From contig CBDCTJ010000003.1 of assembly GCA_965222115.1 (NCBI GenBank), positions 352,001 through 416,000 on the forward strand: a stretch of DNA of 64,000 nt, in the 5' to 3' direction. Under the pieces are notes generated by a model. That model ran no database searches. It was given only the letters and a program-made list of their open reading frames with translations, and had not been told where the DNA came from. Shown here piece after piece: positions 39,573 to 63,773 of this stretch. The position numbers and the translations under genes are program-made. How positions within the stretch are numbered: the first letter of the stretch is position 1; every line of letters begins with the position of its first letter. This DNA comes from Planctomycetota bacterium. Its GTDB lineage: Bacteria; Planctomycetota; PLA2; JAEUHO01.

Positions 39573-42500
39573 CTATCGCCGCGTCGACGGTGCCGTGAGC
39601 AACTCGGAAAAGACCTCTTGCGCCGCCGGCGACGTGGATGCAATCTTTCTTGCCGCGTCGATGGCCGCGTCTCGGTGTTCCGGTCGCCGGTACAACTCGA
39701 GGATGCGGCGCCTCACCGCAAGTCGATCATCGCCAATAGTGCCGAGCGCGCGCAACGAGGCGTCCGTTTCTCGACCGGCGTCAAGCAGCGAGAGAATCTC
39801 GGGAACCGCGGACACTGCCTTACTGCCCAAGGACGCTAGAACGTCCAACACCTTGCGACGCAGACGCGGCCGCGCAAGTGCCTGGATCAACGCTTCCACG
39901 TCGGACTGCGTAAGGTCGCGGTAGCGCCGCAGGGCCTGCGCTGCGTTTTCAGCAACCATGGCGTCCTCATGCTTGAGGAGGTTCAAGAATACGGGCCGCG
40001 CCTCGGAAAGCGCTGCGGCCGCCGCAATGGCGATCGCTGCGCTGCGACGACCCCACTGCGCGTTCTCCAATAACGGCACTACACGCCGGGCGTCTTCGGT
40101 GTCCCATGACTCAACACGAGCGAGATCTCCGTCCAACGCGAGCCCTACCTTGAATGGCTTCCCCTCAACCACGACGGTGGAAATCAACGGCTGCAGGCAT
40201 GGGTACGCAGCGAGTACATCGGGAAGATAGGACGCCGCCGCATCACCGACGCGAATACCCTCGTGATTCAAAAGGTCCAATAGCGATTCGACATCGTTTG
40301 CGGTAAAGGAACCTGCCTTCTTAGCAACGGCAAGTTGTTCGATCTGATCCCGGACCGACACGGCCTGCTTGGGTTGCTTTCCTTTGGGTTTGCGATCGCT
40401 CGCCTGGACGGACGTGTCTTTGAGTGCCACAATGCGCTTGGCAATGCTCCCCGGCAGACCACGTTCTTTCGTCAAAGTCCTCACGCGGGGCATCACACCG
40501 TCAATCGCACCATTGAAGGGCAGCAGCGCGAGCATCGAGATCGCCTTGACTTGTCCGTTCGCGTCCCCGACCAACGACGACAGGCGTTCAATCGTTGTGG
40601 CATCACGGGGAAAAAACGCGAGCGCCAGAGCCGCCATGCCCCGCTTTGGAGCTTCGGTCGCCTTGGTCCGGCGGAGCAACATCGCACGCGCATCGTTTCG
40701 AAGCGGGTCCCTCGAAACTTCGTTTCGATACGCGACGAGTTCATCCGACGTCCAAGCTCTGTCTATATTGATGTCCCTCAAGTCGGGTGCGGCGCGAGCA
40801 AAGAAGAAGATTCCGCCATCTTGGAGCGCTTCTTCCTGCGACGCAATGGCAGCAAGCACGCATGGCACAGCGCGAGGTCCCAGCGCATCAAGTACGTACA
40901 GGCCCTGGCGCACGGACTTGCGCTTACCCGACTTGAATAGGGAATGCACCAGTGTGCTCAAGGACGCGGGCGCAGGCTGTTTCGACGCGCGGGCCCACCG
41001 GACAGCAAGCGCTACCCGGGCGTGGGTCGGTCCGTTGCCACCGATGAACAGCAGCAGTTCGTCTGCACTCATGCTCTCAGCAAGCGCATCCACCGCGGCA
41101 CCGGACACTTGAGGTTCACGGTCCGCCATTTTCTCCGTAATGAGGCGTCGCGTTGCATCGTCAAATGGACCCATCTTGGACAATGCGCGAATCGACGCCG
41201 CCGCGGTAGACGCATCGCCGCGCTCAATGGCGCGTCGAAGTGCGGACGCTACCTCCGCGCTGACGGGCCCAATTCGGGCAAGGGTACGAGCGGCACGAGC
41301 CCCTTCCTTTCCAGAGAGATCACGTATCAACTGCCGGACAAGCGCCTGACTGGGATTGCCAATCGAAATCAACGCCGTTCGCGCCGATTGGCCGATCTTT
41401 GTAGATCCGCGTCCCATTCGATCCTCAAGGGCCGCGACGAGTTCCGGCGTGGATACCCGCAGTCGCGCGGCGGCATCTACACAAATGCGTACGACATTAC
41501 CGTCCCGCATGCGAATCCCTTCAACAAGTTGAGGTATCGCGTCGCGAACATGGCGCCCCATGCTGACCAAGGCGGCGGCGGACAATGCACGTACGTATTC
41601 ATCCTTGGAATTCAGCATGCGCCGCAACGTGGGTGCGGCCTCAATCGCGTCCTCCCCGAGCTCGACGAGCTTCTTTGCGGCGGCGGCACGCACCATCCAA
41701 CTCCCGCGCTCAAGCGCAAGGGCGAATCCCTTCACCGTCTTCTTGCCCATGAAGTTCAAGAGTCGCATGGCCTGTCGAACGGTTCCGATGCGGCTGGTTG
41801 GCGAGATGACGGAGAGAATCTCCGCAACGGAGCGCGGCCCCAGTTCATTGAGGGTGTTTACAACCGTCATGATGAACGACGGATCTCGATGATCGAGCAA
41901 TCGTATGACATCCGGAATCGCATGGTGCCCCTTGCGCCCCATGGTCCTCAACGCTCGAAGAACGCCTTCAAGCGTCTTCTGATTGCGATTTCGCAGCAAG
42001 GTTCGAAGCCCGGGCACAGCATCCTCGCCAAAGGAACCGATGAGCTCGTGGAGGGTGTAGTTGCTCTCGCGTTCATTTCGAAGCGCGCGCAGCATCGCGG
42101 GCAGAGACGGTTTGGCAGCGTCGCCAAGTGCCTTGTAGGCCGTCGCTGCTGCATAGGAAGTCTCGCGTTGCTGAATCAATGCGTCGAGCTTGGGGAGCAC
42201 GCGTGCTGTGGCTTGTTTCATAGCACCGAAGGCAATCACGGCGTCGCTGCGAACATCAGACGACGCCGTACGCTCGACAATCTTCGTCACAGCGTCGAAG
42301 GCGCTACTCGCGTCTGTCTGCGAGTCGTGCATAGCGCGGAGGGCAACGCGCACGGCAGATTCGTTATCAGACGTGAGCACGCCCGACAGAATGGGCATGG
42401 CCTGCGACCCCATCCGCCGCAGGGCGGTTGCGAGCCCATCGCGATTCTTGTCGGTCGCTGTGTCCATCGCGGCGCGAAGCCCTGATAACGATTGTTCTGG

Positions 42501-42965
42501 TGTCGAAGCCAATGCGTTGGCGGCTCGACGTGCCACGTACCAATGATCGTCACTCAGGAGCTCAATGAGACGCTCCACGGAGTCCGGCGTGTTCGAACGC
42601 AGGTGAGCAAGCGCGCCCGCTGCCTCGGCGCGCACCCAGGCAGAGTCGTCGTCGAGCGCCACTGCAAGACGATCGCGTACTTCGCGGCTTCGGAATGCGT
42701 CTTGGCCGAGGGCGGCGGCAGCGCAGGCGCGCGTTTCGGCGACGTCGCTTGCGAGATCGCCAAGGAGCTTGGCGGCATCCGCCGCGGAAACGTCCCGATT
42801 GGGCGTGGCGTTGGCGCCCATCAGGATTCCATCGCCGCCACGCGTGAGAAGGGCGATTCCAACGACGACGGCTAGCGCAAGCGCCGTCAGACCAAGAACG
42901 CGTGGTGGACTCATAGAACGGCTGCTGGCGTTTGCTCGCACGTCGGATTGTTGTGAGTGATGCAT
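39573..42965 (-). CDS. Large membrane-anchored HEAT-repeat protein
   Basis: N-terminal TM followed by many PBS-lyase/HEAT-like units (VRAEAAGAL, VARRAANAL, VRAAAAKKL, VRALSAAAL); start uncertain. Confidence 0.85.
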   Translation of the reverse strand: MHHSQQSDVRANASSRSMSPPRVLGLTALALAVVVGIALLTRGGDGILMGANATPNRDVSAADAAKLLGDLASDVAETRACAAAALGQDAFRSREVRDRLAVALDDDSAWVRAEAAGALAHLRSNTPDSVERLIELLSDDHWYVARRAANALASTPEQSLSGLRAAMDTATDKNRDGLATALRRMGSQAMPILSGVLTSDNESAVRVALRAMHDSQTDASSAFDAVTKIVERTASSDVRSDAVIAFGAMKQATARVLPKLDALIQQRETSYAAATAYKALGDAAKPSLPAMLRALRNERESNYTLHELIGSFGEDAVPGLRTLLRNRNQKTLEGVLRALRTMGRKGHHAIPDVIRLLDHRDPSFIMTVVNTLNELGPRSVAEILSVISPTSRIGTVRQAMRLLNFMGKKTVKGFALALERGSWMVRAAAAKKLVELGEDAIEAAPTLRRMLNSKDEYVRALSAAALVSMGRHVRDAIPQLVEGIRMRDGNVVRICVDAAARLRVSTPELVAALEDRMGRGSTKIGQSARTALISIGNPSQALVRQLIRDLSGKEGARAARTLARIGPVSAEVASALRRAIERGDASTAAASIRALSKMGPFDDATRRLITEKMADREPQVSGAAVDALAESMSADELLLFIGGNGPTHARVALAVRWARASKQPAPASLSTLVHSLFKSGKRKSVRQGLYVLDALGPRAVPCVLAAIASQEEALQDGGIFFFARAAPDLRDINIDRAWTSDELVAYRNEVSRDPLRNDARAMLLRRTKATEAPKRGMAALALAFFPRDATTIERLSSLVGDANGQVKAISMLALLPFNGAIDGVMPRVRTLTKERGLPGSIAKRIVALKDTSVQASDRKPKGKQPKQAVSVRDQIEQLAVAKKAGSFTANDVESLLDLLNHEGIRVGDAAASYLPDVLAAYPCLQPLISTVVVEGKPFKVGLALDGDLARVESWDTEDARRVVPLLENAQWGRRSAAIAIAAAAALSEARPVFLNLLKHEDAMVAENAAQALRRYRDLTQSDVEALIQALARPRLRRKVLDVLASLGSKAVSAVPEILSLLDAGRETDASLRALGTIGDDRLAVRRRILELYRRPEHRDAAIDAARKIASTSPAAQEVFSELLTAPSTRR

Positions 42966-43058
42966 GGTCTCTCCTGGGGGGCTACCCAAGAGAGCGGATT
43001 CGCGAAACGGTTGCTACGTAGCGGGGTGATTTTTGTGATCTGCGCTACGCTGCGGTCC

Positions 43059-43697
43059 ATGAATGGCGAAGGCACGGATCCTCACACGCGCTCAAGCAAC
43101 CAAGATTTGACACAAACACTGGCCTTGGTGAGAAGGGCGCAGGACGCCGACGCAATTGCTCGCGAGCAACTCTTCGTTCACATTCGACCCCGTCTGGAGG
43201 CGTGGATCGCGAGCCGCGTGGGGCCCCGCCTGCGAACGCGCCTCGATGTCGAGGATTTGTTCCAAGAGATCTGCATGAGCGCCCACACGGCCCTCGACAG
43301 CTTTTCGCCGGATGGCAATGAGGCCGCATTTTGGCGTTGGATAACGACCATTGCCCATAACCGCATCCGCGACGCGCACCGCTACCATGTGGGCGCCCAG
43401 AAACGCAGCGCAGAGGCCGAACAGCGGCTCGAACACCAGTTAACGAGTTCGTGGACGTCGCCGAGCTTGCGCGCCGTTCGTCGAGACCAACATGAACGTC
43501 TGTTGTTGGCCATTGCACGTCTCGATGAACCGCATCGCGACGTCTTGCGCGTCGTCGAGTTCGAACACCATAGCTACAAAGAGGCAGCGTCGATCTTGGG
43601 CATCTCGGCCTCCAATGTGAGTGCTCGTTTGACGCGCGCCCGCACAAAACTCGGCGAGTTGATACGCAAGTCGCCCGACGACTGGACGCGTGCATAG
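43059..43697 (+). CDS. ECF (sigma-70 family) RNA polymerase sigma factor
   Basis: Region 2 DVEDLFQE...FWRWITTIAHNRIRD; region 4 SYKEAASILGIS...VSARLTRAR; linker WTSPS. Confidence 0.93.
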   Translation: MNGEGTDPHTRSSNQDLTQTLALVRRAQDADAIAREQLFVHIRPRLEAWIASRVGPRLRTRLDVEDLFQEICMSAHTALDSFSPDGNEAAFWRWITTIAHNRIRDAHRYHVGAQKRSAEAEQRLEHQLTSSWTSPSLRAVRRDQHERLLLAIARLDEPHRDVLRVVEFEHHSYKEAASILGISASNVSARLTRARTKLGELIRKSPDDWTRA

Positions 43698-46240
43698 TGA
43701 CACTTGGCGATAGCGATCATGATGCCCCCGAGCGGATCCTTCATGAGTTCTTAGAGACTCACGGGCTCCGCGATGACGACGCGTGGCACGCGCTCTTGAC
43801 GTCGCATCCGCAACACGCCGATGCACTTAAGCAACTTGGCGATGCGCTGCGTGCCGCGGACGACGCGCTGGAGGGTTTGCGTGCTCCATTGAACACAGTG
43901 CGCGAGGATCCCGACGCGGCACTGCTCGATGCGTTCGCAGGCGATGTGCCGGACCACGCGGCCACATTCGAAGAGGTCGCGAGCATGACAAGGGAAGCGC
44001 ATCATGGGGTCGCATCCGGGCCCCATGCTTCGCACACATTGGAACGCTGCCCTCGATCCATGGAGGAGCGCGCGTTTCTCGAACAAACACGAACCATTGC
44101 ACGCCTGCAGCATCCGTCCATTGCGCCCGTCCACGATCTTGTGCGCGACGAGGACGGACGCCTTGCCCGTCTGAGATCCTTTCCGCCATCAACGTCTCTT
44201 CACGAGTTGCTGAAGGATTCGAAGAGGGAATTGCGCTTTGATCGACGGCGCCTCATCGAAATCCTGTCGAAATGCGCGCGTGTTCTCGCGTTTGCTCATG
44301 AACACGGAGTTGCACACGGTCATCTTGATACGGACAACATCGCCGCGGGCGCCGGTGGGGAACCCTACGTGTTGGGGTGGCAGAATGCCATCGCCCAAGG
44401 TGAACCCGATTATCCCGCTGCGGCGCGCGCAGATATGTCCGCAATTGGTACATTGATCCAAGCCGTAACTTCACGTTTCGGGACAAACGACGCACTGGAC
44501 GCCATTGCGGACGCGTGTGGCGACGGTACGACGTACGCGCGAGCCACGGGCATCGCGGATGACTTAGACGCGTATCGTGAACACCGTCCCCTCAAGGCCT
44601 CGCCCCCTACGGCATGGCGACGACTGGTTCTTACGGCACGACGACACCCGGCCATTGCTACAGCCGTAGGCGCCACGTTGCTTGCAGGTGCGGGTCTGCT
44701 GATGACTCATCTCATTGAGATGAGTCAGGAGATCAAGGCTGCGCAAATAGCTCAGCTGGCAGCACGGAATGAAACCGTGATCGCTGAAGAGAAATCTGAC
44801 TTGGCGCTTGCCCTTGCGCTTGAGCAAGAGGCGCCAACCCTATGGCCGCCGGATCCCGGTACGCTGCCAAAGTACAATGCATGGCTTGAAGACTGCGCAA
44901 GACTTGAGTCGCGTGTGCCCCTGCTACGTTCACGATTGAATCAAGCGCCCAAGGTGGCGACGCGGTCATTCGATACGAGCCAACCTCTACCCCGCACCCG
45001 TTCCATCCACCGCGCCGTACGCAGAATCTCAGTCTGCGAGAATGACATTCGCACGTTAACACTGACACTCAACGCGACGAAGGCGTCTACCGAAGACAAG
45101 CCGATTCGCAAGGCGATCGCGCACGAACTTGAGGAACGAAAGCAGAGGCGTGCAGAGTTGAAAAATGAGCTACGCGCCGCACAGATTCGCGCGCGCGTCG
45201 ATCGAGACGATCGATGGGCGCGTATTGCCTCCATCATCTACCGCATTGAACGTCTAACGCGTGGCGAGCGCTCCGCCAAACGGGTCATTGACGCCCGCCG
45301 CGACCTTGCTGAGAACGTTGCACGTCGCTATGAAAAACCAAGCGACGCATGGCGTCTTGCACAAGACCAGATTCGAGCCGACGCGCGATTCGGCATGTTG
45401 ATCGACGTCCAGCCCGACCTCGTTCCATTGGGCATGGATCGCGCGTCACGCCTCCAAGAATTCGCGTTCTTGCCATCGGGGTCGATTCCGCGGCGCGATG
45501 CAAATGGAGACCTACACTACAAAGACGATGCAGCAATCGTTTTCGTGCTGATTCCGGGCGGTACAACGTGGATTGGCGCACAGTCAGAGAACCCGAAGGG
45601 TAGGAATTACGATCCACAGGCAGTTCCTAACGAAGGGCCGCCTCATGAAGCGCCCATCGATCCCATCTTTATCGCCAAGCATGAGTGTACGGCCGCGCAA
45701 TGGAATCGGCTTCGCTCGCGCTGCCTCCCCATCGACGAAGAGCGCGAGATAGAGAAGACGATCGGTGAGGCTGCGCCGCGAGAGCCCCGTCGAAATCGCG
45801 AGCACACCGCAGTCAAAGAGATGTTGTCGCGCTACGCACTCCGAATGCCCTACGAGTGGGAGTGGGAGCATGCGGCCCGCGCGGGTGGAACGGGTCTCTG
45901 GCCCTGGCCCGGCGACGCCACGCACGCGCCGAGATACACGCAAGTCGGTAGCGGCGCCGTCTTGGCCGAAGTGGGACTGTATGCGCCAAATGGTTTCGGA
46001 CTCCACGATTTGGGAGGCAACGCTGCGGAGCTGATGGAAGGCTATGGGGGAGCATACGAATCGATCTTCTTCGTACGCCGATGGATATCGAACACACGCA
46101 CAGTTCGTGGTCGGTACCTCGGTCGGCCCATTGAGCACGCCCGCGTCACGCATCGCTGGGATGTGCCAATCACATTCTCTTCACCGTGGCTGGGGTTTCG
46201 ACCCGCGCGACCCGTGTATCGGCTGAAGAAGTACCCGTGA
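43697..46240 (+). CDS. Pseudokinase + TM + coiled coil + FGE-sulfatase-fold receptor
   Basis: Kinase remnants (FLEQTRTIARLQHPSIAPVHD, LAFAHEHGVAHGHLDTDNI, YVLGW) without catalytic motifs; TM; FGE-fold RMPYEWEWEHAARAG, PNGFGLHDLGGN, LGFRPAR; GTG overlaps the sigma TAG. Confidence 0.8.
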   Translation: MTLGDSDHDAPERILHEFLETHGLRDDDAWHALLTSHPQHADALKQLGDALRAADDALEGLRAPLNTVREDPDAALLDAFAGDVPDHAATFEEVASMTREAHHGVASGPHASHTLERCPRSMEERAFLEQTRTIARLQHPSIAPVHDLVRDEDGRLARLRSFPPSTSLHELLKDSKRELRFDRRRLIEILSKCARVLAFAHEHGVAHGHLDTDNIAAGAGGEPYVLGWQNAIAQGEPDYPAAARADMSAIGTLIQAVTSRFGTNDALDAIADACGDGTTYARATGIADDLDAYREHRPLKASPPTAWRRLVLTARRHPAIATAVGATLLAGAGLLMTHLIEMSQEIKAAQIAQLAARNETVIAEEKSDLALALALEQEAPTLWPPDPGTLPKYNAWLEDCARLESRVPLLRSRLNQAPKVATRSFDTSQPLPRTRSIHRAVRRISVCENDIRTLTLTLNATKASTEDKPIRKAIAHELEERKQRRAELKNELRAAQIRARVDRDDRWARIASIIYRIERLTRGERSAKRVIDARRDLAENVARRYEKPSDAWRLAQDQIRADARFGMLIDVQPDLVPLGMDRASRLQEFAFLPSGSIPRRDANGDLHYKDDAAIVFVLIPGGTTWIGAQSENPKGRNYDPQAVPNEGPPHEAPIDPIFIAKHECTAAQWNRLRSRCLPIDEEREIEKTIGEAAPREPRRNREHTAVKEMLSRYALRMPYEWEWEHAARAGGTGLWPWPGDATHAPRYTQVGSGAVLAEVGLYAPNGFGLHDLGGNAAELMEGYGGAYESIFFVRRWISNTRTVRGRYLGRPIEHARVTHRWDVPITFSSPWLGFRPARPVYRLKKYP

Positions 46241-48867
46241 GGCGTCCGTCGATGTCGCAGGAATCAGTACTCAGATATCGCTTCGTCGAACCACTCGGCC
46301 GTGGCGGCATGGGCGTTGTAGTGAAGTCGTGGGATCGCTACTTGGATCGAGCGGTTGCCGTGAAACTGCTGCGCGCTCGACCGGGAGCCACTCCCGTCGA
46401 TGACGAGTGCATTGCTCGATTTTCGCGTGAATCTAGTATCGGAGCGTCGTTGTCGCATGGCGGCATTGTGCCCATCTACGAGGTCGGAACCACAGAGAGC
46501 GGCACGCGGTTCTTTACGATGCCCGTGATCCAGGGTGACGAACTCAAAGCCCTCATTCGCCGCGCCCATGAGCCGCCTCGTACGCCACGTCAACGCAGAC
46601 GAGTGATTCAGCACATTGTGGAGGCGTGTGACATCGTTCACTACGCACACACGCAAGGAGTCATTCACCGCGATCTCAAGCCTTCCAACATCATGGTGGA
46701 TGAGGTCGGTCGCGTCTATGTCGTAGATTGGGGAGTAGCGAGGGGATTGGGAGAGCCGGAGGAGCAGGCAAGCCCCGTTGAACGCGCTTCGCACGAGCGA
46801 TCGACCGAAACGCTTGTTACCGAAGATGGATGCGCCCTTGGAACACCCTCCTACATGCCTCCCGAGCAAGCACTCGGCGAATCCGTGACGCCCCAAGCCG
46901 ACGTCTACGCGCTGGGCGCCGTGCTGTATCACGCCCTGACCAACCGAATGCCCTATCGAGATCCAACGCGACCAACGACGCAAGGCGAGATTCTGGGCAA
47001 ACTGATCAAAGGGCCGCCAACCGACATATGGGAACTTGCGCCGGACACGCCAAAGGCATTGGTTCAAATCGTCGAATTGGCTATGGCGCGTGAGCCGACC
47101 GGTCGCTACGGCAGTGCCGCGGCCATGGCCGGAGACTTGCGAGCGTACTTGGAAGGGCTTCCCGTTGCTGCGGCACGACCCTCGATTTGGCGCCGAACGA
47201 AGCTCATGGCTCGTCGGCATCGTACGGTCGCAGGCGCAGTCATGGGCGGGGCGATAGTACTCGGGCTTCTCTGGCTGGTGCTTGGCACTGTGCTTGACAA
47301 CGCGCAACGTCGGTCAGCCACTGCACAGGTTCGGCTGGCACGGGCAATCGACAGAGAGAAAGAATCGGCGATTCTGTCAAGCGCCAACGCACTCCGCGCG
47401 AGTTTAGACGAGTGTATCCCACTCTCGAAGGTGCACCTCACGGCATTGCGTGAACTCAAGGACAGGGCCAAAGCGGTCAACGAACGTAGAAGACCCTATG
47501 CGGAAGAACTCGAAACCCTCAAGGCAACGTCGCTCCCGCTCGATGCCGCGCAACGGAATTGGCACAATCGCGCGGACGTTGAAGACGCTCGCTTGGAGTC
47601 AATGTACGTGTCCTGGGTTCGGACGGAATATGACAAGATGCACGAAGAGGGAGTGATCGACCCCCGCATTGAGGAACTATTCTCAAAGACTCCTATTGAG
47701 CGATACGAGGAGGGCGTTGTCGCTCGGGCAGCCGACCTGAAAGCGAAACGCAGCGTATGGCGCTATGCTTTACCGCGTGACGGAGTGAGGCATCGCCAGC
47801 TTGAAGGGGCCCTCCGTCCCGACATAAGCAAAATCATGGCGGATATCCAACTGAGCATTGCTCGAATTAATGAACGAAAACGCGCAATGCCGGAGACCTC
47901 AACAAGCCGTTGGCGAACATGCCGGGCGAGCATTCGTAGCAACACTCGATATCGTGGTATCGAAATCCCCATACAAGAGAGTCTTTTCCCTTTAGGCGCC
48001 GATCCAAGCTCAGGATTGCATGAATTCGTGGATGTTTCGACAGGCAGTGTTCCGAAGCGGAACGAAGAGGGATCGCTGGTTCTTGAAGACGATACGGGGA
48101 TTGTGTTCGTCTTGGTCCCCGGCGCCGCGCGTACTGACGTTGGCGTATCGCGCCAAATCTGGGAAAGCAAGCTGGGCTCAGTCTCCCACGTAGGCCCGTT
48201 GCGTCCTGTCGCCATCGAGCCCTTCTTTCTTGCCAAGGGTGAGTGCACGATAGCTCAGTGGGAACGAATGGGTGGAGAGCTTGGCATGCGTTGGGAAGAG
48301 ATGCAGGAACCTCGCTGTGGGACCAATATCACAAAGCGATTCCCCATGTGCCATGTCTCATTCAATGGCATACAGCGCGCCTTGGAAACGTTTGGCATGC
48401 GTTTGCCCACGGCACACGAGTGGGAATATGCCGCGCGAGCGGGCATGCAGTCCCTCTACCCGGGTGGAGAATCGCATCATGCATTGAAGGGCGCCGCCAA
48501 TGTCGCGGACCAGTCCTTTGCAGAATGCCACAAGGAGGAGTCCAATCGAATCAGCGAGTCGCTCGCTAACTGGAATGACGGGTACGGCGCCGAGTCGCCC
48601 GGTGGGTCGTTTCTTCCAAATGCGTTCGGCCTACACGACATGATTGGGAACGTCGAGGAGTGGGCGTCTGCTGAATGCACATTGTTTACATGGCCAAGTG
48701 GGTCCACGGATTGGTCTACGCTTCCGAAATCGTGGGGCGTTGTCCGAGGCTCAAGTTGGTACTATCCGCCTAATCATGGGTATTTCGCAGCCCAGCGCAT
48801 CGAGCCCCCAAACACCTACCTCATGCAACTCGGCTTCCGCGCTGCGCGCAGCATTGACTGGAAGTAG
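46237..48867 (+). CDS. Ser/Thr protein kinase + TM + FGE-sulfatase-fold receptor
   Basis: LGRGGMGVV, VAVK, HRDLKPSN, DWG, GTPSYMPPEQ, DVYALG; TM; RLPTAHEWEYAARAG, PNAFGLHDMIGNVEEW, LGFRAAR; GTGA overlap at 46237 (alternative ATG 46252). Confidence 0.92.
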   Translation: MRRPSMSQESVLRYRFVEPLGRGGMGVVVKSWDRYLDRAVAVKLLRARPGATPVDDECIARFSRESSIGASLSHGGIVPIYEVGTTESGTRFFTMPVIQGDELKALIRRAHEPPRTPRQRRRVIQHIVEACDIVHYAHTQGVIHRDLKPSNIMVDEVGRVYVVDWGVARGLGEPEEQASPVERASHERSTETLVTEDGCALGTPSYMPPEQALGESVTPQADVYALGAVLYHALTNRMPYRDPTRPTTQGEILGKLIKGPPTDIWELAPDTPKALVQIVELAMAREPTGRYGSAAAMAGDLRAYLEGLPVAAARPSIWRRTKLMARRHRTVAGAVMGGAIVLGLLWLVLGTVLDNAQRRSATAQVRLARAIDREKESAILSSANALRASLDECIPLSKVHLTALRELKDRAKAVNERRRPYAEELETLKATSLPLDAAQRNWHNRADVEDARLESMYVSWVRTEYDKMHEEGVIDPRIEELFSKTPIERYEEGVVARAADLKAKRSVWRYALPRDGVRHRQLEGALRPDISKIMADIQLSIARINERKRAMPETSTSRWRTCRASIRSNTRYRGIEIPIQESLFPLGADPSSGLHEFVDVSTGSVPKRNEEGSLVLEDDTGIVFVLVPGAARTDVGVSRQIWESKLGSVSHVGPLRPVAIEPFFLAKGECTIAQWERMGGELGMRWEEMQEPRCGTNITKRFPMCHVSFNGIQRALETFGMRLPTAHEWEYAARAGMQSLYPGGESHHALKGAANVADQSFAECHKEESNRISESLANWNDGYGAESPGGSFLPNAFGLHDMIGNVEEWASAECTLFTWPSGSTDWSTLPKSWGVVRGSSWYYPPNHGYFAAQRIEPPNTYLMQLGFRAARSIDWK

Positions 48868-48873
48868 CGATGG

Positions 48874-49416
48874 CTATGTGCCTTTCGTTTTCGCATCATC
48901 GGACTTTAGGATGTCCAACACGTCAGAGAGTGAGCGCTTGGAGTCAAAGAACTCGGGAATGAAGCGGCGCACTGCCGATGCCTGTCCCTCACTCATTGAT
49001 TCGCGAGCAATCTTCAGAACCAACTCGTTCGCCTTGTGGAGTGCCTTGTAGCGCCGCGATCGAATCTGCGCCAATCGAAGTTCGCCGTACATGCGCGTTT
49101 GGCCCATCACCATGCGATCCGTATTGCGCCGCATGAAGCCAAAGCCGCCAAGTCCCGGAATGATGTTCTCAATGCGATAGGGACTATGGACCGCCGCCAT
49201 GGCGCTCCTTGTTTCGTCGATAACGGCCCGCATGGCCCGTTCGGCACTGTCGGCTTCTGCGAAATGGGCTTTCACCCGTTCGTCTTCGGCCGCCTCGTCG
49301 ATCGCGGTCTGAGCAAGTGCGACAGCTTCGGCACGCGTAGAAGGCGCATCGCCGCAGCCCTGTGCCACGAACGTGACACCGGTGAGCAACACCAGGGAAA
49401 TGAATCGTTGAACCAT
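48874..49416 (-). CDS. Hypothetical helical lipoprotein
   Basis: Signal with lipobox-like VAQGC; RBS GGAGGA. Confidence 0.65.
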   Translation of the reverse strand: MVQRFISLVLLTGVTFVAQGCGDAPSTRAEAVALAQTAIDEAAEDERVKAHFAEADSAERAMRAVIDETRSAMAAVHSPYRIENIIPGLGGFGFMRRNTDRMVMGQTRMYGELRLAQIRSRRYKALHKANELVLKIARESMSEGQASAVRRFIPEFFDSKRSLSDVLDILKSDDAKTKGT

Positions 49417-49472
49417 GATCTGTCCTCCGCTTCCTTGAGCGGATTCGGCCGTCCGTTGCTACAAGAATTCTC

Positions 49473-49514
49473 GGGCATCTTCGTCCCGGGTTTGGGCATC
49501 TTCGCCCCGGGTTA
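49473..49514. repeat. 21-bp tandem duplication
   Basis: gggcatcttcgtcccgggttt / gggcatcttcgccccgggtta, between the two lipoprotein genes. Confidence 0.75.
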
Positions 49515-49952
49515 GTTGGGGCGCAGCCCTCCAGGGGAGGCCAACCGAGCCAGAATTGCGTTGATCTCTCGTCGGCGCGCTGCGTTATTCGTAATCGCCG
49601 GTCGAAATGCATCCACCATCGCGGTCACGCCCGTGCGTTCATTGAGTTTCATCAGTTCTGCGGCGGGCGGGTCGAGTTGATCGAGCAAATGCAGCAGATC
49701 ATTCAAGACGGGCCTGAGCGTGGCAGGATCGACGACGCCGCGTCGCGCCAGCTCGTAGTAGTCGTCCTGCCTCTTGTAAAACGACTTCCCCAGCTTGGCG
49801 TAGACCTCGGACACACGCTCAATCTCGGCTTTCAATGCAAGTGCTTCTGCTTCCGTCTTGGGCGGACCGACTGGCACGTCGGACGACTTGGAGCAGGACG
49901 CAATCACCAAGAGTGCAAGTAGAGTCGCGATTGGCAAGCCGTTGCGTATCAC
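49512..49952 (-). CDS. Hypothetical helical lipoprotein
   Basis: GTG start overlapping the CHAT gene TGA; lipobox-like VIASC. Confidence 0.65.
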   Translation of the reverse strand: MIRNGLPIATLLALLVIASCSKSSDVPVGPPKTEAEALALKAEIERVSEVYAKLGKSFYKRQDDYYELARRGVVDPATLRPVLNDLLHLLDQLDPPAAELMKLNERTGVTAMVDAFRPAITNNAARRREINAILARLASPGGLRPN

Positions 49953-52738
49953 TTTGTTTCCCCCGTATTCGTTTCGCCGGGGTGCGGAACACCCCAAACC
50001 TGCCAACCGGCCCAATGATCCGGATCGCGAAATGCGGCACTTGATGCAAGCTCCTGCTTCGCACGTCGCAGCGCCTGCATAAGCGGTTCACCCGCCCCTT
50101 GCTTCGGATTCCATCGGCGATAAAACGCCGTCATGAACGCTTGCGTCGCTTGGTCGTCTACCGGCCAAAGGCTCGCAATGACAGCGCGTGCACCGGCCGA
50201 CAAGAAGCCGCGAGCGAGGGACAGGCTTCCTTCGGAGCGTGACAGTTGCCCGATTCCACTCTGACACGCCGAGAGCACGACGAGGTCGGTCCGAATGGGA
50301 ATCCGTTCAATCTCCTCCATCGTCAATCGCCCGTCGTCATGCCCGCTCGGCGAGAGTCGCAGCGCCGAACGCTGCGGTACGTAGTCATCGAGGTCGCCAT
50401 GGGCGGCGATGTGAATCGCACGCCATCCTGGTTTCTCACTCGCCGCACGTCGGTAGGCCTCCTCCGTTGCACTCGCTCGCACATGGACCTTGGTTCCGAT
50501 GGCGCGGGCTTCGTCGCCCGACGCACGCAGTCTCGCCAAAGACGTGTCGGCGCTGTAGTCCGGGTCGGCGAGGGCAACAACGCGCCTGCCGCCGACGCGC
50601 TTTCGCGCGAGCAGTTCTTGGAGTATGGCGAACGACGGAACGATCGAGACCGTTCGACGACCCAAGTACTCCGCAATCGGCATATGCGCGGTCACCCCTG
50701 TCGTAGATACATAGATATGGGTCGTGACGGGGTCAAGGGCAAGAGCGGCATCGAAACGCGTGCGGTAGGTGTCTCTCAATACGTTCCATGCATTCGGATG
50801 CTCTTGCTCGGCAAACGCCCTCTGCGCCGCATTGAGTTTCTCCACGGCGCCCAGGGTCACCAGACGCGCGTGTTTCCCGCTTACAACGAGTGCCAGCACG
50901 GTGTCGTCAAATACGTGGATGGACATCCACGCGCGATGGGCGGGGAGCAATCGACGGGCCTCGCGGAGGCGTTTCACACGGGGCTTGAATGTCCGCCCGC
51001 CGCGCAACGCGCTGCGCCTCACCGCCACGGCCTCGTGTAACGCCTGTCTCGCGGCTTCGACCTCCGGCATCGCATTCGACTCAAACGCTTGAAGCAGACG
51101 CCGACGCGCACGTCGAATCGCCGCGTCATGCTTGTAACGAGCATGTGCATCCCCGTGTGATTCATGTGCAGGGACGCGGTGATGGCGTGCCAGGGAATTG
51201 AGCAGCACACGTGCACGGCCTTCTTCGGCAAAACGAAAGAACGCGTCGGCATTCTTTGATGCGAACGCAGCGCGCATGCCTAAGTCCAATACGCTCTGAT
51301 CGCTGTCCCGTACGCGAATGACGTCCAGCGGCGCGAGATCGTTTGAACGATCATCGAGATACGGCACGGCTTCGTGCACAGATGCGATGGCGCCGGCATG
51401 GTCGCCTTGACTCAACTGCGCCGTTGCACGGCCACGTAGCGCAGCCACAATCATGCGCGGATTGTGCAGCTCGGTTGCAAGGGCGTGCGCACGCGTTAGA
51501 GACTGAATCGATGCGCGATGATCGTCCTTCGCGTGCTGTGCACCCGCCAGGGTGAGCAGGGCGACGAGTTCGTCCATCCGCAGCCGGAGCTTCCGTGATC
51601 GTGCCAAGTTCTCCGTTGCCAGTTGAGCCGCCAAATCAAACCGGTCCGATTTGAGCATGAGATCGGCCACATTCCCACGGACGACCATCTCCTGTTCGAC
51701 GTCGTTGATGGCCTGGGCGCGCGCTGCAATGGACGTTAGGCGTGAAACGAGCTCGTCACTCTTGTTGCCGTCCGCAATGTCAATATTCGCGAGATCCAGA
51801 TCGATCGCGAGAAGCTCCGAGGGCGCGCTTGCCCCGACGAGCTCCCGTTTCGCCACCATAACGTAGCTTCGCGCCTGCGACAGGTCTCGTAGTCGCCACG
51901 CAAGAACGCCAAGTTCCCGCACCGATTGTGCCGCGTGGAGCACGAATCCATGCTGGCGTTGAATCTCACGGGCACGCAGGAGACGCCGTTTTGCCCGACC
52001 ATAGTCACCCGACGTGATGTCGAGACGACCAAGTGCCGCCAGCGTATTGGCATACCCACGGGGGTCGCCGTGCTCACTGCGCATGGACAGGGATTCACCA
52101 AAGTGTTTGCGCGCCCTGGCAATATCTCCTTGCTGTGCATGCAACATGCCGAGATTTTGGTGCGCCTTCATGACGCCGGGGCGCATAAACGCTTCTCCAT
52201 AACTCTTGGCAGCGGCAGGCGCCCTTTCGAGTACGCGCTTCATCGAAGCAATCGCCTTTCGATCTTCGCCTAAGAGGTCGTAGGCCAGGCCTCGATTGAG
52301 TTCGAGCATGAGCAGCGCACGCCCGTGATCTACATTTTGAAACAAGCGCTCCGCCTCGGCATAAAGCGAAAATGTTTGCTCACGCAGCCGTAGGCGAGAC
52401 GCGACGTTTGCCGCGGACATGAGCGCGATCGCACGCGCCTGATCGTCCTTACGCTCCGCATGAATCTCAGCTTCACGTTGAAAATGGTTGAGCGAACACT
52501 CAAATCGCCCCAGATTTACACACGATCGTGCCTTCGCAGCGTGCATCGCCGCCGACTCATCTAACTCGCCGCGTTTGTAAAGCGCTTCGGCAATATCTAC
52601 ATCCTCGACCACCTGCTTTGCAGGATTCCGTGCCTCGTCTTCGGAAGCGCCACCTTGTGCGCGACTCTGCCACCATCCGAACACCAGAAGCGAAACGATT
52701 CCTGCAGTAAGTGCTAGTGCGCTGCGCTTGTTCATCAT
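49949..52738 (-). CDS. TPR + CHAT (caspase/HetF-like) protease with N-terminal signal/TM
   Basis: Start MMNKRSALALTAGIVSLLVFGWW after GGAG; TPR-like helices (AHQNLGMLH, ANTLAALG); CHAT dyad IHIAAHG and LVVLSACQSG; SLARGFLSAGA, ASLWPVDD, FMTAFY, HWAGW. Confidence 0.92.
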   Translation of the reverse strand: MMNKRSALALTAGIVSLLVFGWWQSRAQGGASEDEARNPAKQVVEDVDIAEALYKRGELDESAAMHAAKARSCVNLGRFECSLNHFQREAEIHAERKDDQARAIALMSAANVASRLRLREQTFSLYAEAERLFQNVDHGRALLMLELNRGLAYDLLGEDRKAIASMKRVLERAPAAAKSYGEAFMRPGVMKAHQNLGMLHAQQGDIARARKHFGESLSMRSEHGDPRGYANTLAALGRLDITSGDYGRAKRRLLRAREIQRQHGFVLHAAQSVRELGVLAWRLRDLSQARSYVMVAKRELVGASAPSELLAIDLDLANIDIADGNKSDELVSRLTSIAARAQAINDVEQEMVVRGNVADLMLKSDRFDLAAQLATENLARSRKLRLRMDELVALLTLAGAQHAKDDHRASIQSLTRAHALATELHNPRMIVAALRGRATAQLSQGDHAGAIASVHEAVPYLDDRSNDLAPLDVIRVRDSDQSVLDLGMRAAFASKNADAFFRFAEEGRARVLLNSLARHHRVPAHESHGDAHARYKHDAAIRRARRRLLQAFESNAMPEVEAARQALHEAVAVRRSALRGGRTFKPRVKRLREARRLLPAHRAWMSIHVFDDTVLALVVSGKHARLVTLGAVEKLNAAQRAFAEQEHPNAWNVLRDTYRTRFDAALALDPVTTHIYVSTTGVTAHMPIAEYLGRRTVSIVPSFAILQELLARKRVGGRRVVALADPDYSADTSLARLRASGDEARAIGTKVHVRASATEEAYRRAASEKPGWRAIHIAAHGDLDDYVPQRSALRLSPSGHDDGRLTMEEIERIPIRTDLVVLSACQSGIGQLSRSEGSLSLARGFLSAGARAVIASLWPVDDQATQAFMTAFYRRWNPKQGAGEPLMQALRRAKQELASSAAFRDPDHWAGWQVWGVPHPGETNTGETK

Positions 52739-52760
52739 GGACTCCGTTCGTGTTGGATTT

Positions 52761-54818
52761 TCAATTGGCGTGTTTCGTGGTCGTCGGCAGCGGCAAACCA
52801 AGCGCGCGCCGTGCCGCTTCGAGAACGGCCCGGCCCAACCGTCCGACCCTCGGCACGTGCCGCAGCGTTTCGAGCGCCGCGGTGTAGCGCCCTTGCGTGT
52901 ACAGAACGAATGCACGCCTTTCCTCGGGAAGTGCTTGTGTGGCGCGATCGACGATGGCGAGCGAAGCCGACGTCTGCTTCGGGTCGGCATCGGTCATGAC
53001 CGTAAAGGTGGCTCGACCCGCTTCTTCGCCCTCCATGTCCAACACATTCCACGTATAAGTTTGGCCTGGACGAAGCCGACCACGAATGTCTTCGGGAATC
53101 ACGATCCGCTGTGTGGCCGCGTCCGTCGCCTTGATGATCCGCTGAAAACTACTCCCATATACATCCATTGCAACGGTCCCATAGGTACCGGGTGGCATGG
53201 CAACCGTTAGCGCCACCACATCGTTCTTTGTCACGTTGCCGCGGGGAAGCCATGCGACGGGAGATGCGCGACTGCGTACGACGCGATGATGCGCTCTTGC
53301 CGACGCACGTACAAGTGCAACCATTTCGCGAACGAGCTCCGGTGCGTCCTCGCGCAACTGCTCCGCCGGCGCCAATTGGACTTCATCGCCACTGCGAATG
53401 CGGCACCGTTGGCTCCACGAATGAAAGTACGGTGATTCCCAACGAACTTCGTGTGAGCCGGGCGAGAGCTTGTGTCCGCGTAGCGGCGCCCCGCCACACG
53501 CCACACCATCGACATAGACTTCGCCCCCACCCAACGTCTCGGGAACCACGTGCAGCGTTCCACGGCGAAACGTGGTCCACCAAACGGTTCCTAGGCCCAA
53601 CATCGCGACCACGACGGCGGACGCAACCCAATGACGTTTCGCGAAACGCGCGGCTTTGGCGAAACGTCTGGACGGCATTCGGATTTCACGTCCCTGTGCC
53701 ACTTTCCGCAGGTCGTCAGCCAGCGCGCGCGCGTCGGCATAGCGATCCCGGGGATCTACTTCCAAAGCGCGGTGAATGACCTGAGCAATTGCGGGGGCAA
53801 TCGTCGGCGTAACGGACGCTAGTGGAGCGATCGATCCCCGCGTGACACACGTTCGCACGTCTGCTAAAGATTCGGCGGCGCCATGAATACGCTGGCCGCT
53901 CAGCGTCTCGTACATCACCGCGCCAAGGCCGTAGATGTCGGAGCGCCCATCCAGCCGTTTCGGATCACCACGCCATTGCTCGGGACTCATGTAGGAGGGA
54001 CTTCCGAGCATGTCGCCGTGCTGCGTGAGTGACGTGCCGAGTTCGGTCTTCGCAAGATCAAAGTCGGTGAGGACCAATCGACCCTTGGCGTCCAAGATCA
54101 AGTTGGAGGGCTTGACATCGCGGTGCACGATTCCCACGTGGTGATAGGCCGCGAGGGCTTCCGCCACGCCGACAAACGCCATGGCGATGCGCCGCGAAAA
54201 TCGATGGGCGCCGCGTCCCACGCCGGGAATACCGAGTCGATCCAGTACATGGTCGCGTTCGACACCGGAGGAGATTTCCTCTGCGTGAAGCTGACCAATG
54301 GCGTCGCTCCAGGTGGGGCCGCGCAAGAGCCCCATCACGATGTAGGGTCGGTCTGACGTGTTGGCAATGCCGTGATCAAAAATACGCGCCGCATGATCAT
54401 GTTCGACTTGAGCTGCGGCGGCCGCCCCCGCTTCAAACCGCTGCCGCGCCTCTGTGTTGCTCAGCCGTTGATGCAAGACCTTGAGCGCCACTTCACGAGA
54501 CAGGCCCACTTGCCACGCTCGAAACACATCGCCATACGATCCAGAACCCAAGTAGGCGAGGGTGCGATAGCCCTCCACGACAACGCCCACACCACCCTCG
54601 TCGAGTGACTTGTCTTGCACAACCGGGCGCTCGCTGAGGGTCTCATCCAACACGCGCGTAAACTGGGCGAATGCTCCTCCCGCTTGATCGCGATAGTCAT
54701 TCACGTCGGGCTCCTCCCCATGCAATGCGCGCAGAAAATAATCGGCAACAAGCATGGAAACGGTCGGGTCCATCTCGTCTTCTTGTGTATGGATGTGATG
54801 TCGCTCGTGGGGCATCAT
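52761..54818 (-). CDS. Receptor Ser/Thr kinase with TM, PEGA domain and DUF928-like C-terminus (start may be 54773)
   Basis: LGSGSYGDV, VALK, HRDVKPSN, TDFDLA, GSPSYMSPEQ, DIYGLG; TM; PEGA-like GGEVYVDG...LSPGSHEV; LRPGQTYTWNV...RAFVLYTQGRYTAALETL. Confidence 0.88.
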   Translation of the reverse strand: MMPHERHHIHTQEDEMDPTVSMLVADYFLRALHGEEPDVNDYRDQAGGAFAQFTRVLDETLSERPVVQDKSLDEGGVGVVVEGYRTLAYLGSGSYGDVFRAWQVGLSREVALKVLHQRLSNTEARQRFEAGAAAAAQVEHDHAARIFDHGIANTSDRPYIVMGLLRGPTWSDAIGQLHAEEISSGVERDHVLDRLGIPGVGRGAHRFSRRIAMAFVGVAEALAAYHHVGIVHRDVKPSNLILDAKGRLVLTDFDLAKTELGTSLTQHGDMLGSPSYMSPEQWRGDPKRLDGRSDIYGLGAVMYETLSGQRIHGAAESLADVRTCVTRGSIAPLASVTPTIAPAIAQVIHRALEVDPRDRYADARALADDLRKVAQGREIRMPSRRFAKAARFAKRHWVASAVVVAMLGLGTVWWTTFRRGTLHVVPETLGGGEVYVDGVACGGAPLRGHKLSPGSHEVRWESPYFHSWSQRCRIRSGDEVQLAPAEQLREDAPELVREMVALVRASARAHHRVVRSRASPVAWLPRGNVTKNDVVALTVAMPPGTYGTVAMDVYGSSFQRIIKATDAATQRIVIPEDIRGRLRPGQTYTWNVLDMEGEEAGRATFTVMTDADPKQTSASLAIVDRATQALPEERRAFVLYTQGRYTAALETLRHVPRVGRLGRAVLEAARRALGLPLPTTTKHAN

Positions 54819-61880: not shown

Positions 61881-61891
61881 AGGATTTGGGA

Positions 61892-62857
61892 ATGAACTCG
61901 GAGTCGCCCCCTCCTTTGACGAGCTGCAGTCCCGAACGAGCCGAGGGACCCGAGACCCTCTTCTCAATCCGGGCGGCCGCCAATGCGGCAGGCATTTCTC
62001 CTCAGGCGATTCGAATGTGGGAAGAGCGCTACGGACGACCCAAGGCCGTTCGCCTACCCAGCGGTCATCGGCGCTACACCGAAGCGCAACTCACGTGGCT
62101 GCGACGAGTGGCGAGCGCCCTGACCCTCGGCCATCGACCGAGCGAAGTGATTCGTTTATCCCCCACCGAACTCGACGCCCTACTCGACGAAGAATTGCAG
62201 GCGACGCCGCTCACCGACGCAGGGAAACAAGCGCTCGAGTGGATCGCTGCGTTCCGGGCCTCCGACTTGCGTCAGTGGCTTCGAGCCGAGGCACATGCGA
62301 ATGACGTTGTGACGTTCTTGTCTCAACGAGTCGCGCCACTGCTCCAGGCCGTGGGCCGGTCTTGGGCTGAAGGCAATATTCAAGTCCGGCATGAGCACGC
62401 CTTTACGGAGGTGCTACAAGACGAGCTGCGCCGACTCCGATTGAACCATGTCCCCACGTCGCGCGCCGCGCCCATCGTTTTGGCCACGCTACCCGGCGAG
62501 CTGCACGCGTTGGGTGTTTACATGATCGACCTCATCACGGCATCCGAAGGCTTGCACACCCATACCCTTGGCGCGGACACACCCCTGGACGACATCGTCG
62601 ACACCGTGCGCGATGTAGGAGCACATGCGGTTGCCATTAGTGTGTCGTCCAACATGAGTGGCACAGTCGTGGATCGTCAACTGAAGCAATTGCGAGCACA
62701 GTTGCCAAAAGAGATAGCACTCCTTGTAGGCGGTGCAGGCGTTGAACGCGCGCGCCGACGCCCGCGCGGCGTTGAGATGCCATCCGGCCTCCGAGGGTGG
62801 CAAGCATGGGTCCGCGCGTACCGAACGCCCAGGTCCAACTCATCACCCAGCAACTAG
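61892..62857 (+). CDS. MerR-family B12-binding photoreceptor regulator (CarH/LitR-like)
   Basis: MerR HTH (IRMWEERYG...SGHRRY); W-x9-EH motif (WAEGNIQVRHEH); cobalamin ligand GELHALG; LGADTP; LLVGG. Confidence 0.92.
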   Translation: MNSESPPPLTSCSPERAEGPETLFSIRAAANAAGISPQAIRMWEERYGRPKAVRLPSGHRRYTEAQLTWLRRVASALTLGHRPSEVIRLSPTELDALLDEELQATPLTDAGKQALEWIAAFRASDLRQWLRAEAHANDVVTFLSQRVAPLLQAVGRSWAEGNIQVRHEHAFTEVLQDELRRLRLNHVPTSRAAPIVLATLPGELHALGVYMIDLITASEGLHTHTLGADTPLDDIVDTVRDVGAHAVAISVSSNMSGTVVDRQLKQLRAQLPKEIALLVGGAGVERARRRPRGVEMPSGLRGWQAWVRAYRTPRSNSSPSN

Positions 62858-63622: not shown

Positions 63623-63773
63623 CGGATGCGCAACTCTCCCCTGAAGATCGGGTCTGAATGGCGCTGAGAGTCTACCGCTGACCCCAATCCAGATCGAATC
63701 CGGGAAAAATCGGACTTGACCGTAGGGATGGCGCCGGCACGTCGCTCTTTCATCTAGGACCAAGGAATGCGCC

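Follow-up and report, generated by a model that had tools for sequence, protein, structure and literature searches.

The kinase-linked extracytoplasmic function (ECF) sigma factors of Planctomycetes form the original groups ECF59-ECF62, and ECF217 in the Casas-Pastor 2021 classification; the part of that work which treats these groups names no recognisable anti-sigma factor for them (PMC7826278). Here we describe a related locus of a Planctomycetota bacterium, at positions 43,059 to 48,867 of a 64,000-nucleotide stretch of DNA (assembly GCA_965222115.1, contig CBDCTJ010000003.1, positions 352,001 to 416,000 of the forward strand). We call this stretch the window, and coordinates refer to it unless another sequence is named. 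The locus encodes an ECF sigma factor, a receptor with a degenerate kinase domain (P0002) and a receptor with an active Ser/Thr kinase domain (P0003). It resembles ECF59-62 and ECF217 in that those groups, like 20 of 29 homologues of our sigma factor, have an ECF sigma gene directly beside a membrane Hanks-type kinase (PMC7826278). It differs in that the sigma-proximal receptor is dead and a second, active receptor follows behind it; the likeness is one of layout.

In Vibrio parahaemolyticus the sigma factor EcfP (ECF43) has lost the acidic DAED motif, with STTA instead, and is inactive until phosphorylated in sigma2.2, a phosphorylation needed for RNA polymerase binding (PMC8999054). Other kinase-linked ECF groups keep the acidic motif and may work differently (PMC8999054; PMC7826278). 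As in the EcfP/PknT system (PMC8999054), the activity of our sigma factor would be set by an adjacent transmembrane (TM) Ser/Thr kinase. However, our sigma factor and its whole family keep D/E-x-E/D-D, and the EcfP mechanism is unlikely here. To our knowledge EcfP is the only kinase-controlled ECF sigma factor of known mechanism, and we know of no established mode of control for the kinase-linked groups that keep the acidic sigma2.2 motif.

Kinases fused to a periplasmic FGE-sulfatase domain (sulfatase-modifying enzyme 1) are an established planctomycete type: this domain is reported to rank third among the partners of kinases in the phylum (PMC11032199). P0003 has exactly that architecture. 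The sections of the study that deal with these proteins describe neither a pseudokinase version nor a coupling to sigma factors, and its main text has 0 occurrences of the word pseudokinase (PMC11032199).

Seven families of bacterial pseudokinases have been described, namely ActPs1-3, GLW, CP1, DYD and DLHK; in the main text of that paper sigma, Planctomycetes, FGE and Myxococcota have 0 occurrences each (PMC12599244). Like these, P0002 has a Hanks-type fold in which each of the three catalytic motifs is degraded, and like the GLW family it has a TM helix anchor C-terminal to the kinase-like domain (PMC12599244). The GLW family is mainly proteobacterial and is defined by GLW where active kinases have HRD and by a poly-Leu strand (LLLL/W) that replaces the beta3 Lys (PMC12599244). 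Judged from this family description, the motifs of P0002 rule out membership: it has A-H-G-H-L at HRD, GWQ at DFG and no poly-Leu strand. The pseudokinase domain of MviN/MurJ (ActPs3) in Mycobacterium tuberculosis is similar in that it is a membrane-linked scaffold after phosphorylation by PknB (PMC12599244). It differs by belonging to another family, by its fusion to a flippase and by its output, which is FhaA recruitment and peptidoglycan synthesis.

A further analogy is offered by HER3/HER2 (ErbB3/ErbB2) and by the receptor pseudokinase/kinase pairs of plants, which are likewise paralogous single-pass pairs where one member is dead and would act through the live one. There is, however, no homology to HER3/HER2 beyond the kinase fold, and the output proposed here is a sigma factor, not a phosphotyrosine docking site. 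An initial annotation of the window, made from its letters only, had suggested a possible HER3/HER2-like system at this locus. Such a pairing of P0002 and P0003 is plausible.

A variant of the planctomycete ECF-kinase module

The locus is a variant of the planctomycete ECF-kinase module, in which a conserved receptor pseudokinase holds the position of the cognate kinase and is coupled to an active paralogue. Its three open reading frames (ORFs), all on the + strand, are found at 42957/43059..43697, 43697..46240 and 46186/46237/46252..48867, with alternative starts separated by slashes, and they constitute one co-directional, overlapping unit. At the first junction (TAGTG, 43695..43699) the TAG stop of the sigma gene (43695-43697) and the GTG start of P0002 have one base in common. 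At the second (46237..46254) the TGA stop of P0002 (46238-46240) overlaps a GTG at 46237, giving GTGA. Both junctions, from which the initial annotation had derived three translationally coupled genes, are confirmed directly in the sequence, with the reservation that P0003 has an alternative start, an ATG at 46252 located 8 nt past a GAGG, which is equally good or better than the GTG at 46237.

The genes on both sides of the triad are on the opposite strand, and the sigma factor, P0002 and P0003 therefore make up a self-contained unit. A scan of 42700-49500 for promoters and terminators gave nothing exceeding shuffled controls. The genome itself is a 7-contig, 4.55-Mb assembly with an estimated completeness of 90%, and no fellow member of its genus is among the genomes compared.

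We tentatively read the locus as a planctomycete ECF/receptor-kinase operon where the usual partner of the sigma factor would now be a noncatalytic pseudokinase, P0002, while catalysis would come from the co-translated paralogue P0003. This is the account we lean towards, without being confident in it.

Anatomy of the pseudokinase receptor

P0002 (43697..46240) has 847 residues, arranged as a helical N-module, a degenerate kinase domain, a TM helix, a helical region and an FGE-sulfatase-like domain. The N-terminal helical module (residues 11-81, 43727..43939) contains the motif LHEFLE..G..DD....LL.SHP.HA.AL.QL. AlphaFold2 (AF2) predicts helices at residues 11-22, 27-36, 38-70 and 72-81, with a predicted local distance difference test (pLDDT) score of 94-97 for residues 11-50 and >90 for 11-60. 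Pairwise alignments and inspection find the same motif in the homologues P0096, P0045 and P0055, in P0091, which is an active kinase, and in active FGE receptors next to sigma genes of other genomes; small profile models did not detect it.

Residues 82-111 (43940..44029) are a low-confidence remnant (pLDDT <50 at 82-108) that replaces the N-lobe strands beta1-beta3 and aligns with the Gly-loop/VAxK region of active kinases, but has neither a Gly loop nor a beta3 lysine. Of the ~100-aa helical pre-kinase segment described initially, the helical module thus stands at about residues 11-81, whereas residues 82-108 are of low confidence and take the place of beta1-beta3.

The pseudokinase core, from alphaC to alphaI, covers residues 112-300 (44030..44596; AF2 pLDDT >90). 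Alignments A2 and A4 show that HGH replaces HRD, that GWQ replaces DFG/DWG and that a deletion has removed the activation segment together with some of the alphaG region. In A2, which aligns P0002 with active relatives (36 sequences) and was also the input to AF2, E100 and H103 fall at the Gly-loop glycine columns and the VAxK lysine column is empty; Q130 replaces the alphaC Glu, G208-H209 the R-D of HRD, and G227 and Q229 the D and G of DFG. The deletion, of about 35-45 residues, spans the activation segment and the P+1 loop. Retained are N214, the alphaF Asp (D246), helices alphaE, alphaF, alphaH and alphaI and a juxtamembrane R-R-H motif. Accordingly, the lesions listed in the initial annotation (no Gly loop, VAxK lysine or activation segment, HRD changed to HGH and DWG to GWQ, all in an intact 847-aa frame) hold up in the 36-row alignment and the ORF.

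With this alignment, AF2 models the cytoplasmic part plus TM helix at a mean pLDDT of 86.2 and a predicted TM-score of 0.67; a single-sequence run on residues 1-340 was uninformative (pLDDT 41.8). A Foldseek search of the PDB with the model has the kinase domain of M. tuberculosis PknB as its best match (1mru_A, E 1.4e-8, TM 0.47/0.59), with PknA also on top, and all 50 matches listed are kinase domains. Of the Pkinase profile only positions 40-129 are matched, by residues 122-215, and the score of 18.9 bits is below the cut-off (31.7). The kinase fold is accompanied by the loss of all three defining residues, the beta3 Lys (gap), the HRD Asp (H209) and the DFG Asp (G227). Judged from the predicted model, P0002 is a true pseudokinase with no visible nucleotide pocket.

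The single TM helix is predicted at residues 318-339 (44648..44713; hydrophobic stretch AIATAVGATLLAGAGLLMTHLI), where the model has a helix and homologues have their aligned TM segments. The periplasmic FGE-sulfatase-like domain (residues 616-837, 45542..46207) comes after a conserved DLVPLG.D..S.L.EF...PSGS.P motif, scores 53.1 bits against PF03781 and is 33-40% identical to homologues in relatives.

The active receptor and the pairing of the two

P0003 (46252..48867, + strand) is an active Hanks-type Ser/Thr kinase receptor of 871 aa from ATG 46252, or 893 aa from GTG 46186, with one TM helix (about 47221-47292) and a long helical region. Its kinase domain (46276-47127) matches Pkinase (PF00069) at 122.3 bits, cut-off 31.7, and the PknB-type model NF033483 at 217 bits, below the equivalog cut-off of that model. 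All the motifs of a Hanks-type kinase, from the Gly loop, beta3 Lys and alphaC Glu to HRD, DFG and an APE-like segment, are present, as GRGGMGVV, VAVK, RE (the alphaC Glu), HRDLKPSN, DWG and GTPSYMPPE. The Gly loop begins only 8-30 residues from the N-terminus. That P0003 has all catalytic motifs and starts nearly at the kinase domain, as first annotated, is therefore correct.

P0002 and P0003 are paralogues that align collinearly (BLASTP E 1e-35; overall identity 23%), and the LVPLGMD.../LFPLGAD... motif is part of the alignment. In each, a kinase-like head in the cytoplasm is joined through a single TM helix and a helical region to an FGE-sulfatase-like domain in the periplasm, which in P0003 is C-terminal (48193-48849) and scores 94.4 bits against PF03781; both receptors exceed the gathering cut-off of this family, 23.3 bits. 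BLASTP, Pfam and the alignment agree here with the paralogy, common layout and shared motif that had been noticed from the start.

Within its own genome the C-terminal part of P0002 has P0003 as its sole strong match, plus one weak. The two ectodomains are 30% identical to each other, compared with 39-40% and 35-37% to outside homologues. Since by identity they are not each other's nearest relatives, the pair is not a recent tandem duplication.

The catalytic cysteine pair of FGE presumably lies in the C-terminal R-G-G-S...L-G-F-R segment. This segment is free of cysteine in both P0002 (VRGRYLG...LGFRPARP) and P0003 (VRGSSWYY...LGFRAARS). From these sequences, a role as binding modules is more likely for the two FGE-like domains than an enzymatic one.

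The same TM-helical-FGE ectodomain, with its DLVPLG...VFVLIPGG motif, is also found on other cytoplasmic heads, at L014, L017 and L026 (genomes G012, G015 and G014), at L021 (G022) and at L020, L023 and L031 (G029, G026 and G027). Among these heads are an nSTAND1 NTPase (L017, Pfam 290 bits) and a TIR domain (L021). At L020 an N-terminal extension and a kinase precede the ectodomain; the extension looks cyclase-like by eye and is not confirmed by Pfam. The ectodomain acts like a portable sensor module, which is also used on defence-type domains.

A second pseudokinase receptor whose gene overlaps that of an active kinase is found in genome G289, which belongs to another family of the phylum, on contig C491. 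There, the gene of a TPR-type pseudokinase receptor (HGT, GFE) and the beginning of the active kinase gene have 11 nt in common. For the pairing of a pseudokinase with a kinase, such gene overlaps are more telling than adjacency.

The sigma factor and its genomic context

The sigma gene (43059..43697, + strand) encodes 212 aa from ATG 43059, and its longest ORF starts at GTG 42957. Pfam finds Sigma70_r2 (PF04542, 42.9 bits), Sigma70_r4_2 (PF08281, 47.3 bits) and PF07638. TIGR02937 is matched at 97.1 bits (cut-off 42.9), and TIGR02984 (Planctomycetaceae subfamily 1) at 95.7 bits, which is under its cut-off of 183.75. With sigma2 and sigma4 domains only, and a length close to the ~200 aa of the class, the protein is an ECF (group 4) sigma-70 factor.

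In sigma2.2 the acidic DVED is present (L-D-V-E-D-L-F-Q-E), and all 28 aligned homologues have acidic residues there (D/E-x-E/D-D). An ECF43-type phospho-activated sigma factor is ruled out as a class, the acidic motif being kept and not swapped for Ser/Thr. The family alignment A5 (window 43059-43694 plus 28 loci) also has a strongly conserved H-x-G-A-x-K-R after sigma2 and a Ser/Thr-rich linker between sigma2 and sigma4, which reads W-T-S-P-S here and S-Q-T-S-P-S in the family consensus. Linker positions S134 and S136 are Ser/Thr in 26/29 and 25/29 family rows. We know of no role for the H-x-G-A-x-K-R and S-Q-T-S-P-S motifs.

We searched for the sigma factor in 60 relatives and studied 29 homologous loci (33-43% identity) with 1.5-kb flanks. 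An active kinase gene lies directly downstream on the same strand at 20 of the loci, as expected for kinase-linked ECF factors; the kinase is divergent at two and upstream at one, and six have none within the flanks. Further, neither P0002 nor P0003 has an anti-sigma Pfam domain at E up to 0.1. The statement in the initial annotation that planctomycete ECF factors are often linked to Ser/Thr kinases is therefore upheld for this family. Because homologues of the sigma factor mostly have an active kinase directly downstream, P0002 occupies the slot of the cognate kinase.

The sigma-adjacent kinases in general have a helical extension of 65-90 residues ahead of the Gly loop. Among 20 loci with the same TM-helical-FGE ectodomain, four have a sigma factor of this family nearby. 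In three of the four (L028, L030 and L032) the receptor is a full-length active kinase-FGE protein of 877-928 aa, that is, the architecture of P0002 with an intact kinase. By inspection, the N-termini of these three resemble the P0002 motif (L032 VCREHPSHADEIRS vs P0002 LLTSHPQHADALKQ). The 12-18 kb inspected at these loci revealed no second receptor beside them. The sigma-linked FGE receptor is thus alone where it is intact, while here it is dead and has a live paralogue without N-module behind it; the numbers are small. A hidden Markov model (HMM) built from seven seeds of the P0002-type N-motif had no match among the ORFs of 80 kinase loci.

The closest paralogue of the sigma factor in its own genome (about 40-42% identity) is the divergent neighbour of an active kinase gene; this pair is at 63005-63940 on the - strand of the window and, past the window end, at G000:C3:416068-416922 (+). 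The kinase bears the usual helical extension of 65-90 aa ahead of its kinase domain, so that a canonical form of the module, with a single kinase, stands 15 kb away from the triad. A MerR-family regulator with B12-binding domains in a CarH-like layout (61886-62857, +) adjoins this second sigma gene.

Conservation of the dead state

The initial annotation had asked whether close homologues of P0002 would be catalytically intact, as expected after simple decay. Instead, three full-layout homologues, P0096 (885 aa), P0045 (882 aa) and P0055 (812 aa), with 28-32% identity to P0002, are degenerate at the same positions. All have the N-terminal helical motif, A-H-G-[A/N/S]-L for HRD and G-W-E for DFG; a TM helix and a helical region are present as well, and Pfam recognises an FGE-sulfatase domain in each. 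The activation segment is shortened in P0096 and P0055 as in P0002, while P0045 has a longer divergent insert. Pfam finds no kinase match in P0096 or P0055 (E up to 0.001 or 0.01) and a sub-threshold one in P0045.

In the five-member alignment A4, positions H139, P140, H201, G204, H207, G208, L210, G227, D246 and R297 are invariant across the core. In a kinase-domain tree of 88 rows, made by a quick method, P0002 (branch 2.26) groups with P0045, P0096 and P0055 at 84-90 in the Shimodaira-Hasegawa-like approximate likelihood ratio test; all four are on long branches, so that the grouping may be long-branch attraction. A common origin of the four is likely, and the reading that fits this comparison best is a pseudokinase lineage which is old and has been maintained. 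The lesions are common to distant homologues, and the dead state would therefore be under selection for a noncatalytic role.

Two other cases of degenerate kinases were seen. A profile search gave a family of about 25 clusters in Myxococcota (P0178, P0183-P0206; ~810-856 aa) with the HRD Asp replaced (HRR, HRA, HRG, HGE), LGWG for DFG and a short activation segment, many of them keeping a GRGTFG Gly loop. The family is a separate clade in the kinase tree, and a common origin with P0002 is neither shown nor excluded. From its sequences it is probably an undescribed conserved pseudokinase family. In a close relative from the same family as the window genome (G001, contig C70), a 467-aa kinase-like ORF at L159:7853-9253 (+) has HGG for HRD and AFG for DFG, and its N-lobe is still recognised by Pfam (51 bits).

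A proposed mechanism

The position and topology of P0002 are those of an anti-sigma factor. Since the acidic DVED is kept in sigma2.2, the sigma factor should bind RNA polymerase unphosphorylated. A sigma factor able to bind polymerase alone therefore needs a holder, and release from such a holder fits better than an activation of the EcfP type.

A complex prediction for the sigma factor with residues 1-320 of P0002 scored 0.60 (runs 0.59, 0.61 and 0.60), while the best of three controls scored 0.00. Contact agreement between the runs was at least 56% and the pLDDT of the partner at least 67. The mark set for a prediction was passed by 58 of 80 solved complexes and by two of 110 mismatched pairs; among scores of up to 0.60 that passed there were only seven of the 80 solved complexes, plus both passing mismatches. 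These benchmark counts hold roughly for our run, as its alignments were self-made.

We propose that the cytoplasmic part of P0002 may bind the sigma factor, as the prediction weakly suggests, and would serve as a docking or holding, anti-sigma-like subunit. P0002 and P0003 would come together by way of their TM, helical and ectodomain regions, or else by their kinase-like heads. Once a ligand in the periplasm occupies the presumably nonenzymatic FGE-like domains, P0003 would be switched on and would then phosphorylate either the sigma factor or the cytoplasmic part of P0002, and the sigma factor would be released or activated. Our guess for the phosphosite is the conserved T-S-P-S linker motif of the sigma factor.

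A bolder version would have a dead receptor in the role of an anti-sigma factor, run in trans by its live paralogue, with two FGE-like sensors feeding one transcriptional output, and the HG/GW family would then be an undescribed class of sigma regulators. We regard this as unlikely, though worth entertaining.

Several observations weigh against a pseudokinase partner served by a live paralogue. The docking or sequestering of the sigma factor by the dead receptor, proposed in the initial annotation, gains weak support from the complex prediction, but its score of 0.60 lies in a range in which most passes are false unless there was prior reason to expect the pairing. An HMM of the pre-kinase extension of sigma-adjacent kinases leaves P0002 unmatched at E up to 10, and hhalign gives the two N-module alignments a probability of 0.3%. 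An ectodomain tree of 26 rows, one of them a poor inclusion (P0014, branch 8.5), leaves both P0002 and P0003 unresolved at its base, with branches of about 2.5 changes per column. Kinase genes form tandem arrays in many of these genomes, as judged from gene coordinates, and adjacency alone is therefore weak evidence. No sigma gene was found within about 3 kb upstream of the G289 tandem.

Orthologue searches belong with these observations. Neither a close orthologue of P0002 nor a second triad was found in 40 relatives, and the same was true of 400 genomes of the phylum and of all 40 of the class, each of which was already covered. A word search of 5.8 billion proteins gave no close orthologue, and among 1.84 billion representatives only P0002 itself fell below 1e-30. 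A pattern scan of GTDB for an orthologue or triad returned 80 ordinary kinases only. Back-translated FAHE[HRQ]GVAHG, used to scan the JGI metagenomes, gave five stretches and no orthologue; one of the five is kinase-like (L153, on a 1.9-kb contig). The conserved triad of sigma factor, pseudokinase and kinase that the initial annotation had predicted is therefore not borne out by a second case in the 40 relatives, the 400 genomes of the phylum, the GTDB pattern scan or the JGI signature scan.

Alternative explanations

P0002 could instead work on its own as a membrane anti-sigma factor for which a dead kinase serves as scaffold, holding the sigma factor with its cytoplasmic part and releasing it by conformational change or proteolysis when a ligand binds its ectodomain, with P0003 independent and acting on other substrates. 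Its gene follows directly behind the sigma gene with an overlapping stop, and N-terminal cytoplasmic helices, one TM helix and a periplasmic domain are the classic layout. The retained acidic sigma2.2 motif points the same way, as it calls for a holder rather than an activator (PMC8999054), and so does, weakly, the complex prediction. In addition, an atlas feature search with residues 1-110 found look-alikes among small planctomycete proteins, and the nearest named cluster has zf-HC2 in 38% of its members (score 0.83, sub-threshold), which is a lead only. However, P0002 lacks a Pfam anti-sigma domain, and kinase-linked ECF groups typically go without anti-sigma factors (PMC7826278). P0003 moreover overlaps or is tightly coupled to P0002 and has the same rare ectodomain type, and the G289 pseudokinase is likewise coupled to an active kinase. 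We consider this account improbable, if still a serious contender.

Another account confines P0002 to allosteric effects on P0003, as its activator, inhibitor or co-receptor, without contact with the sigma factor; P0003 alone would act on the sigma factor, just like the kinase of an ordinary ECF-kinase pair. Regulating kinases is described as the commonest role of pseudokinases in the relevant parts of PMC8141879 and PMC12599244, and both the sigma-free surroundings of the G289 tandem and the lack of significant homology between the N-module of P0002 and the extension of sigma-adjacent kinases are consistent with it. Yet it is P0002, not P0003, that holds the overlapping, sigma-proximal position, and P0002 has kept the N-module of the sigma-adjacent active receptors L028, L030 and L032, which P0003 is missing. 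A contact with the sigma factor is also weakly supported by the complex prediction. On balance a role confined to P0003 is distinctly doubtful.

It is very improbable that P0002 is a mere duplicate, in decay or without function, of some receptor kinase, with the sigma factor under P0003 or other control. The absence of a close orthologue in every collection searched, the very long branches of P0002 in both trees (2.26 and 2.51) and an FGE score weaker than that of P0003 (53 vs 94 bits) would agree with decay. Against this, its 847-codon frame is intact in DNA of 60% G+C, the same substitutions recur in P0096, P0045 and P0055 despite the low identity, and the kinase-like core has invariant positions and a confident fold prediction.

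Finally, an unconventional activity of P0002, by atypical ATP binding or other chemistry on the kinase fold, has some precedent in supposed pseudokinases that are active or of other chemistry, such as SidJ in glutamylation (as covered in parts of bioRxiv 10.1101/2021.04.13.439722 and PMC12599244), but with the Gly loop, beta3 Lys, alphaC Glu (Q130), HRD Asp and DFG Asp gone and the place of beta1-beta3 of low confidence we find it hardly credible.

Neighbouring genes

To the left of the triad, on the opposite strand, is the gene of a 1138-aa HEAT-repeat protein (39573..42989); to the right, also on the opposite strand, is a 180-aa ORF with no family match (48874..49416). Further to the right, a 1013-aa CHAT-domain and TPR protein (49949-52990, -) adjoins a 685-aa Ser/Thr kinase with a PEGA domain (52761-54818, -), and the longest ORFs of these two overlap.

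Implications

Kinase-linked ECF sigma factors are abundant in Planctomycetes, and only the ECF43 mechanism has been worked out. The locus described here is a natural separation of function: the sigma-proximal receptor is without catalysis but has the N-module and a sensor, and the live kinase is a separate protein. With this separation one can ask which region of the receptor is for docking the sigma factor and which is for signalling. The locus also brings a type of pseudokinase that is conserved and membrane-bound, with a sensor ectodomain, to the few bacterial families that have been described, none of which is known to be tied to transcription.

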